Assembly (NCBI RefSeq): GCF_044324875.1
Contig: NZ_CP172185.1
Reading direction: 5' to 3' (one strand)
Source: Escherichia coli
Lineage (GTDB): Bacteria > Pseudomonadota > Gammaproteobacteria > Enterobacterales > Enterobacteriaceae
DNA length: 64,000 nt
Shown in pieces: positions 43,574 to 44,086 of the stretch. Positions within the stretch are counted from its first letter, which is position 1. Each line of letters starts with the position of its first letter. Made by a program: the position numbers and the translations under genes. Under the pieces are notes generated by a model that worked only from the letters and a program-made list of their open reading frames with translations, had not been told where the DNA came from and made no database searches.

Positions 43574-44086
43574 TTAGCTGAGGCGTTGAGGGCCAGCACG
43601 GATGCCTTGCGCCTGGCTTATCCAGACGGGCGTGCTGAATTTTGCTTGCGGGGTAAAATGCGCATAATCAATGCGATAACCCTTTTCAGACGGCGTGCCT
43701 TCCTGGGTCAACAGCGCGCTGAGCGTATCCAGTAATGCAAGATGTTGCGCCTGAAGAGGCAAAGATTCTTCAGCAACGGGCAGCGTTTGCGGTGCCATTG
43801 CGAAGGAAAGATGACGGATTACCGTGCGAATGGCATGTTGATGCCAGTAATCAACGGAATAGTTCGAATTCGGGCGGCGCGTGTTCGCTTCCAGCAAGGC
43901 CAATTGACCAAAGTTAACTTTGGCTGAAGGCTCGTGGTTACGGGTTGTCGCTTTTGCGGGCGCGTTTGGTTCGGCGGCGTTGCTGAGCGCAGGCAAACCT
44001 AAACTCGCCGCGACCATCCCTAATAAGAGATGCGGCCAGAAGTAGCGTTTACCAAACTGTCGCCAGCGCGTCAGTATTCCACTCAC
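43574..44086 (-). CDS. secM: secretion monitor SecM (secA translation regulator)
   Basis: ORF 43574..44239; conserved GTG start (cac at 44084-44086 on the plus strand) gives 170 aa; ends with the arrest sequence. Confidence 0.85.
43589..43639 (-). promoter_or_regulatory. secM: SecM ribosome arrest peptide coding segment ([17 protein letters not shown])
   Basis: Exact FxxxxWIxxxxGIRAGP motif translated from the sequence; Pro166 codon at 43589-43591. Confidence 0.7.

Follow-up and report, generated by a model that had tools for sequence, protein, structure and literature searches.

SecM is a textbook arrest peptide. It comes in a long and a short class (PMC10987492), and the arrest motif has been defined as F150xxxxWIxxxxGIRAGP166 (PMC4737659; PMC10987492). 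The signal sequence corresponds to residues 1–37 (PMC6993859, citing Sarker et al., 2000). In the published model, a stem-loop in the messenger masks the Shine-Dalgarno sequence of secA, the stalled ribosome disrupts this structure and pulling by the translocon releases the arrest (PMC4737659; PMC6993859; PMC10987492). Here we describe the secM locus contained in the window, i.e., the whole stretch of 64,000 nucleotides of Escherichia coli DNA that was analyzed, and compare it with its described relatives.

An intact secM gene upstream of secA

The secM coding sequence is located at 43574..44086 on the minus strand, with a GTG start codon (44086-44084), 170 codons and a TAA stop codon (43576-43574). 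The minus strand translation of 43574-44086, coordinates that include the stop codon, is a single unbroken frame, and the coordinates, the GTG start, the length of 170 aa and the C-terminal string given in a preliminary description of this DNA all match it; that description did not name the strand. A plus strand reading of the same interval was dropped, its translation being riddled with stops, and the antisense ORFs of 41–61 aa found on the plus strand inside the secM region have no support. Aligned to E. coli SecM, the check that the preliminary description had suggested, the protein is identical to SecM of K-12 MG1655 (b0097; secM at 107705-108217) in 169 of the 170 residues. The only change in the protein is T170S (ACC to AGC), which lies four codons beyond the stall site. 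The three residues that follow the arrest motif, QRL, are the same as in K-12 in both amino acids and nucleotides.

Such identity, like the matches to family models and structures, cannot be put down to chance. The Pfam SecM model (PF06558) matched with 195.9 bits and an E-value of 4.2e-58 (curated cut-off 25) and the NCBIfam SecM equivalog NF002799 with 231.2 bits and an E-value of 7.4e-69 (curated cut-off 100). Among the structures, a PDB chain named 'Secretion monitor' was matched with an E-value of 7.7e-110. The protein also matches nascent chains in structures of ribosomes stalled by SecM: it does not differ from that of PDB 9vvi/9xwo over residues 1-165 or from that of PDB 8qoa over residues 132-165, and PDB 3jbv was matched as well. 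When the locus was used as a query of 1 kb, one match each was found in 5424 of 5426 complete E. coli genomes. In several of them the 1 kb is 100% identical and the features are annotated as lpxC, secM and secA; in NZ_CP018957.1 the identical DNA is annotated as secM (WP_000014320.1).

The gene order around secM is the canonical one: lpxC, terminator, secM, secA and mutT. The lpxC gene (44318-45235) lies upstream of secM, and downstream of lpxC an intrinsic-terminator-like hairpin with a U10 run (44238..44291, minus strand) separates it from the secM leader. Folded directly, this hairpin had an energy of -24.2 kcal/mol (z = -4.58), and none of 200 shuffled sequences was as stable. The consensus promoter and terminator scan missed it owing to its limit on loop size. 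The same scan, covering 43450-44400, gave no convincing minus strand promoter for secM, and its only promoter match overlies the start of secA and is at chance level. On the other side, secM is immediately upstream of secA and in the same orientation.

Sequence, family models, synteny with secA and the RefSeq annotation of identical DNA agree with the earlier assignment of this ORF to SecM, and we are practically certain that it is an intact and ordinary E. coli secM with a cis-regulatory link to secA, no observation speaking to the contrary. The presence of an intact secM beside secA in E. coli is already known and expected, and the value of the find is that of a sanity check. As the preliminary description had proposed, the gene serves to verify the identity of the window and the accuracy of the reading: the DNA is E. 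coli chromosome around secA and the dcw cluster, and the first reading was correct to the base. What is added are modest points only, namely the frequencies of the T170S allele and the near-invariance of the DNA coding for the arrest motif over about 5400 genomes.

Start codon and signal peptide

The first 37 codons (43976..44086, minus strand) code for a predicted Sec signal peptide of the atypical long kind, recognized by hydropathy and identical to that of K-12. A basic n-region (R7, R9, K13, R14) comes first. The hydrophobic core, delimited as L20-L34 or as about residues 19-34, leads to SNA|AEP, and the peak of the hydropathy scan was at residues 19-25. The Sec signal peptide expected of a SecM is, as judged from the sequence, present here.

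Two other starts were considered. In the program-made list of ORFs the frame extends up to an in-frame TTG at 44239, which would give a protein of 221 aa, and the match to the Pfam SecM profile sets in at residue 24, corresponding to the internal Met24 of the old 147-aa 'gene X' model; we take this late beginning of the profile to reflect the older gene model. But several observations favor the GTG at 44086. Positions 1-168 of the NCBIfam model NF002799 align with residues 3-169 of SecM, the full-length chain deposited as PDB 9vvi begins with MSGILTRW, and the annotations of K-12 and of other RefSeq genomes use the same GTG. A signal peptide with its basic n-region, moreover, requires residues 1-19. 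The pattern of substitutions with respect to K-12 points in the same direction. Within the 170 codons of the coding sequence there are seven synonymous changes and one non-synonymous, whereas the 51 codons that precede the GTG in frame have four non-synonymous and two synonymous, a pattern that switches exactly at the GTG and that fits non-coding DNA upstream of it. The revised start, along with the atypical signal peptide, is credited to Sarker, Rudd and Oliver (2000), cited in PMC6993859. Translation beginning in truth at TTG 44239 or at Met24 seems to us very improbable, and we consider GTG 44086 as the start of secM. A mini-ORF of five codons (ATG GCA ATA ACG TGA; 44084-44098, minus strand) overlaps this GTG out of frame; it is also found in K-12 and is probably incidental.

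The arrest motif and the last codon

The arrest motif is encoded by codons 150-166 (43589..43639, minus strand), the codon for Pro166 being CCT at 43591-43589. Residues 150-166 contain every fixed position of F150xxxxWIxxxxGIRAGP166 and do not differ from K-12 in either protein or DNA, so that the motif is intact, as the preliminary description had stated. Its further claim of exact conservation is right for the motif and does not extend to the whole protein, which ends in QRLS here and in QRLT in K-12. The post-arrest tail, codons 167-170 (QRLS) plus the stop, occupies 43574..43588 on the minus strand, and its codon 170 is AGC (Ser) compared with ACC (Thr) in K-12.

A final residue that differs from the K-12 reference could be read as the sign of a decayed, non-functional copy of secM or of a misread base. 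Nevertheless, the frame is intact and seven of the eight substitutions separating the gene from that of K-12 are synonymous. RefSeq has the same protein as WP_000014320.1, with the annotation SecM, and residue 170 comes after the stall site and is not part of the motif that was defined as necessary (PMC10987492). The frequency of the allele is also telling: the 61-nt context of a codon 170 that reads AGC has exact matches in 2292 genomes out of 5424 complete ones of E. coli (~42%), O157:H7 among them. Decay or misreading is effectively refuted by these data and we give it next to no credence. Ser170 is a common natural allele of E. coli and not a reading error, in an intact secM gene.

We also looked at longer haplotypes. 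The 71-nt haplotype of the window, combining AGC with a G at the intergenic position 43545, was exact in 605 genomes (about 11%), and that of K-12, with ACC and A, in 2722 (about 50%). The possibility that T170S and the intergenic A to G change form a linked or compensatory pair was rejected, the two not being strictly linked (2292 genomes with the AGC context and 605 with both changes).

An exact copy of the 63 nt coding for residues 148-168 (43583-43645, minus strand), matching also at synonymous sites, was found in 5295 of 5423 E. coli genomes. The neighboring codon 170 is split about 42/58. For the arrest-coding segment a hairpin of its own (43638-43593) is predicted as well. The invariance of these 63 nt may reflect a constraint at the level of the mRNA, or may be due simply to the short length of the segment.

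The secM-secA spacer and the proposed coupling

The regulated gene, secA (901 aa), is located at 40807..43512 on the minus strand, with its ATG at 43512-43510. From the secM stop (43574) to this ATG (43512) there is a spacer of 61 nt, both genes being on the minus strand, and the spacer is the same in K-12. We folded 161 nt spanning the 3' end of secM and the spacer. In the minimum-free-energy and centroid folds, 43590-43577 pairs with 43534-43521, forming a predicted helix whose 5' arm (43577..43590, minus strand) corresponds to secM codons 166-170 and whose 3' arm, GCGGGGCGUUUGAG (43521..43534, minus strand), holds the Shine-Dalgarno sequence of secA. The latter is UGAG at 43524-43521, 8 nt ahead of the AUG. 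For K-12 the prediction gives the same core helix. The 161-nt fold is only moderately more stable than shuffled sequence (z about -2). At the Rfam gathering threshold, a scan of the whole window left the secM-secA leader without a match to any described family. The folds place a predicted Shine-Dalgarno-masking stem-loop within reach of a ribosome stalled at Pro166.

Both differences from K-12 in this region add predicted pairs. The change in codon 170 adds G43578-C43533 and C43577-G43534 and the intergenic change adds C43570-G43545. The segment energy is -42.2 kcal/mol, compared with -38.4 for K-12. Judging from these folds, AGC at codon 170 together with G43545 could conceivably set the basal translation of secA, or the threshold for its induction, differently between lineages of E. 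coli, although we regard such an effect as unlikely.

That SecM would stall the ribosome in this strain follows from its 169/170 identity with a protein that has been characterized experimentally and structurally. Arrest at Gly165/Pro166 and Sec-dependent release we infer from the identity of residues 1-169 with K-12 and from the chains of 9vvi, 8qoa and 3jbv. SecM would be translated from the GTG start with its long N-terminal Sec signal peptide and, at Pro166, the nascent F150-P166 stretch inside the exit tunnel would arrest elongation, as it does according to the literature. From footprints and toeprints it is known that a ribosome shields about 12–15 nt downstream, and one that holds Pro166 in its A site and Gly165 in its P site would do the same here. 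Given a footprint of this size, the covered stretch would be the 5' arm of the helix, i.e., secM codons 166-170. The ribosome stalled on codons 165/166 would then melt the helix, leaving the secA Shine-Dalgarno free, and secA would be translated. With export working, the arrest would soon be relieved by the pull of SecA and SecYEG on the nascent chain, and secA would stay at its basal level; with export impaired, the literature indicates that the arrest would last longer and secA would be induced.

Other features of the window

E. coli Ecol_316 shows a collinear arrangement, in the opposite orientation, between the yad fimbrial/panBC region and ilvIH, with 98.4–99.2% identity to the window. 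An exception is an insertion of ~9.6 kb at about 24812-34396, in the 5' end of ppdD and between nadC and ppdD, that is absent from Ecol_316. The GC content of this island is 30–42%, compared with ~52% in its flanks, and the full-length form is rare, with 6 carriers among 5426 complete E. coli genomes. Next to ppdD the island codes for a large serine recombinase (32796-34355, minus strand), and elsewhere for a small resolvase (27712-28296, minus strand) and for a weakly ResIII/DEAD-like helicase (31245-32717, minus strand). Four of its ORFs (428, 367, 119 and 346 aa) had no match in Pfam and no meaningful one in PADLOC, where one match had an E-value of about 0.009. At the nadC side a prepilin N-terminal fragment of 27 aa remains. 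The insertion may be an integrative island with uncharacterized cargo, perhaps defense genes. A segment of ~130 bp in the acnB-yacL spacer (7971-8100) did not align to Ecol_316, probably representing a REP element or variable intergenic sequence.

Several matches to RNA families were found along the window. PssrA ('Plasmid-encoded Shigella sRNA A') was matched at the ftsA-ftsZ junction (46479-46568, minus strand) with 105.5 bits, the gathering score being 69; the name of the family is at odds with the chromosomal location between ftsA and ftsZ. The other three matches also reached the gathering level. STnc40 (40762-40831, minus strand) spans the 3' end of secA and the secA-mutT spacer, and naRNA4, a REP-type element, was found near the yacG-proximal end of mutT (40283-40358, minus strand), where there is also a short repeat-length change with respect to Ecol_316 (40286-40362). 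Finally, tp2 was located antisense in the pdhR-aceE intergenic region (19299-19412, plus strand). A search for tRNA genes in the window found none.

Comparison with known systems

The closest characterized relative of the locus is that of K-12 MG1655 (b0097, NP_414639.2/WP_000014321.1). The two share the length of 170 aa, the GTG start, the signal peptide and F150-P166, as well as the 61-nt spacer to secA, the predicted Shine-Dalgarno-sequestering helix and the flanking lpxC and secA genes. They differ by T170S, by seven synonymous changes and by one intergenic A to G change at position 43545 of the window. Closer still is WP_000014320.1, the SecM of many E. coli other than K-12 (e.g., Ecol_316), which is the same protein and the same allele, with the DNA of the 1-kb locus 100% identical.

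The short-type SecM (Pfam PF10818 SecM_small/NCBIfam NF038363) has the same role upstream of secA. Its models showed weak similarity to the N-terminal signal region of the protein in the window, with 20.9 (PF10818) and 25.9 bits (NF038363), both below the curated cut-offs. At the sequence level the SecM of the window is of the long type, with each of the defining features found. Outside the SecM family, VemP (Vibrio, secDF2) and MifM (Bacillus, yidC2) have a similar design, an upstream ORF with a localization signal and a C-terminal arrest peptide, in which the stalled ribosome opens a stem-loop that masks the Shine-Dalgarno sequence (PMC10987492). In contrast with this likeness in arrangement, their sequences are unrelated, they control other genes through other arrest motifs and they are not homologues of the ORF described here.
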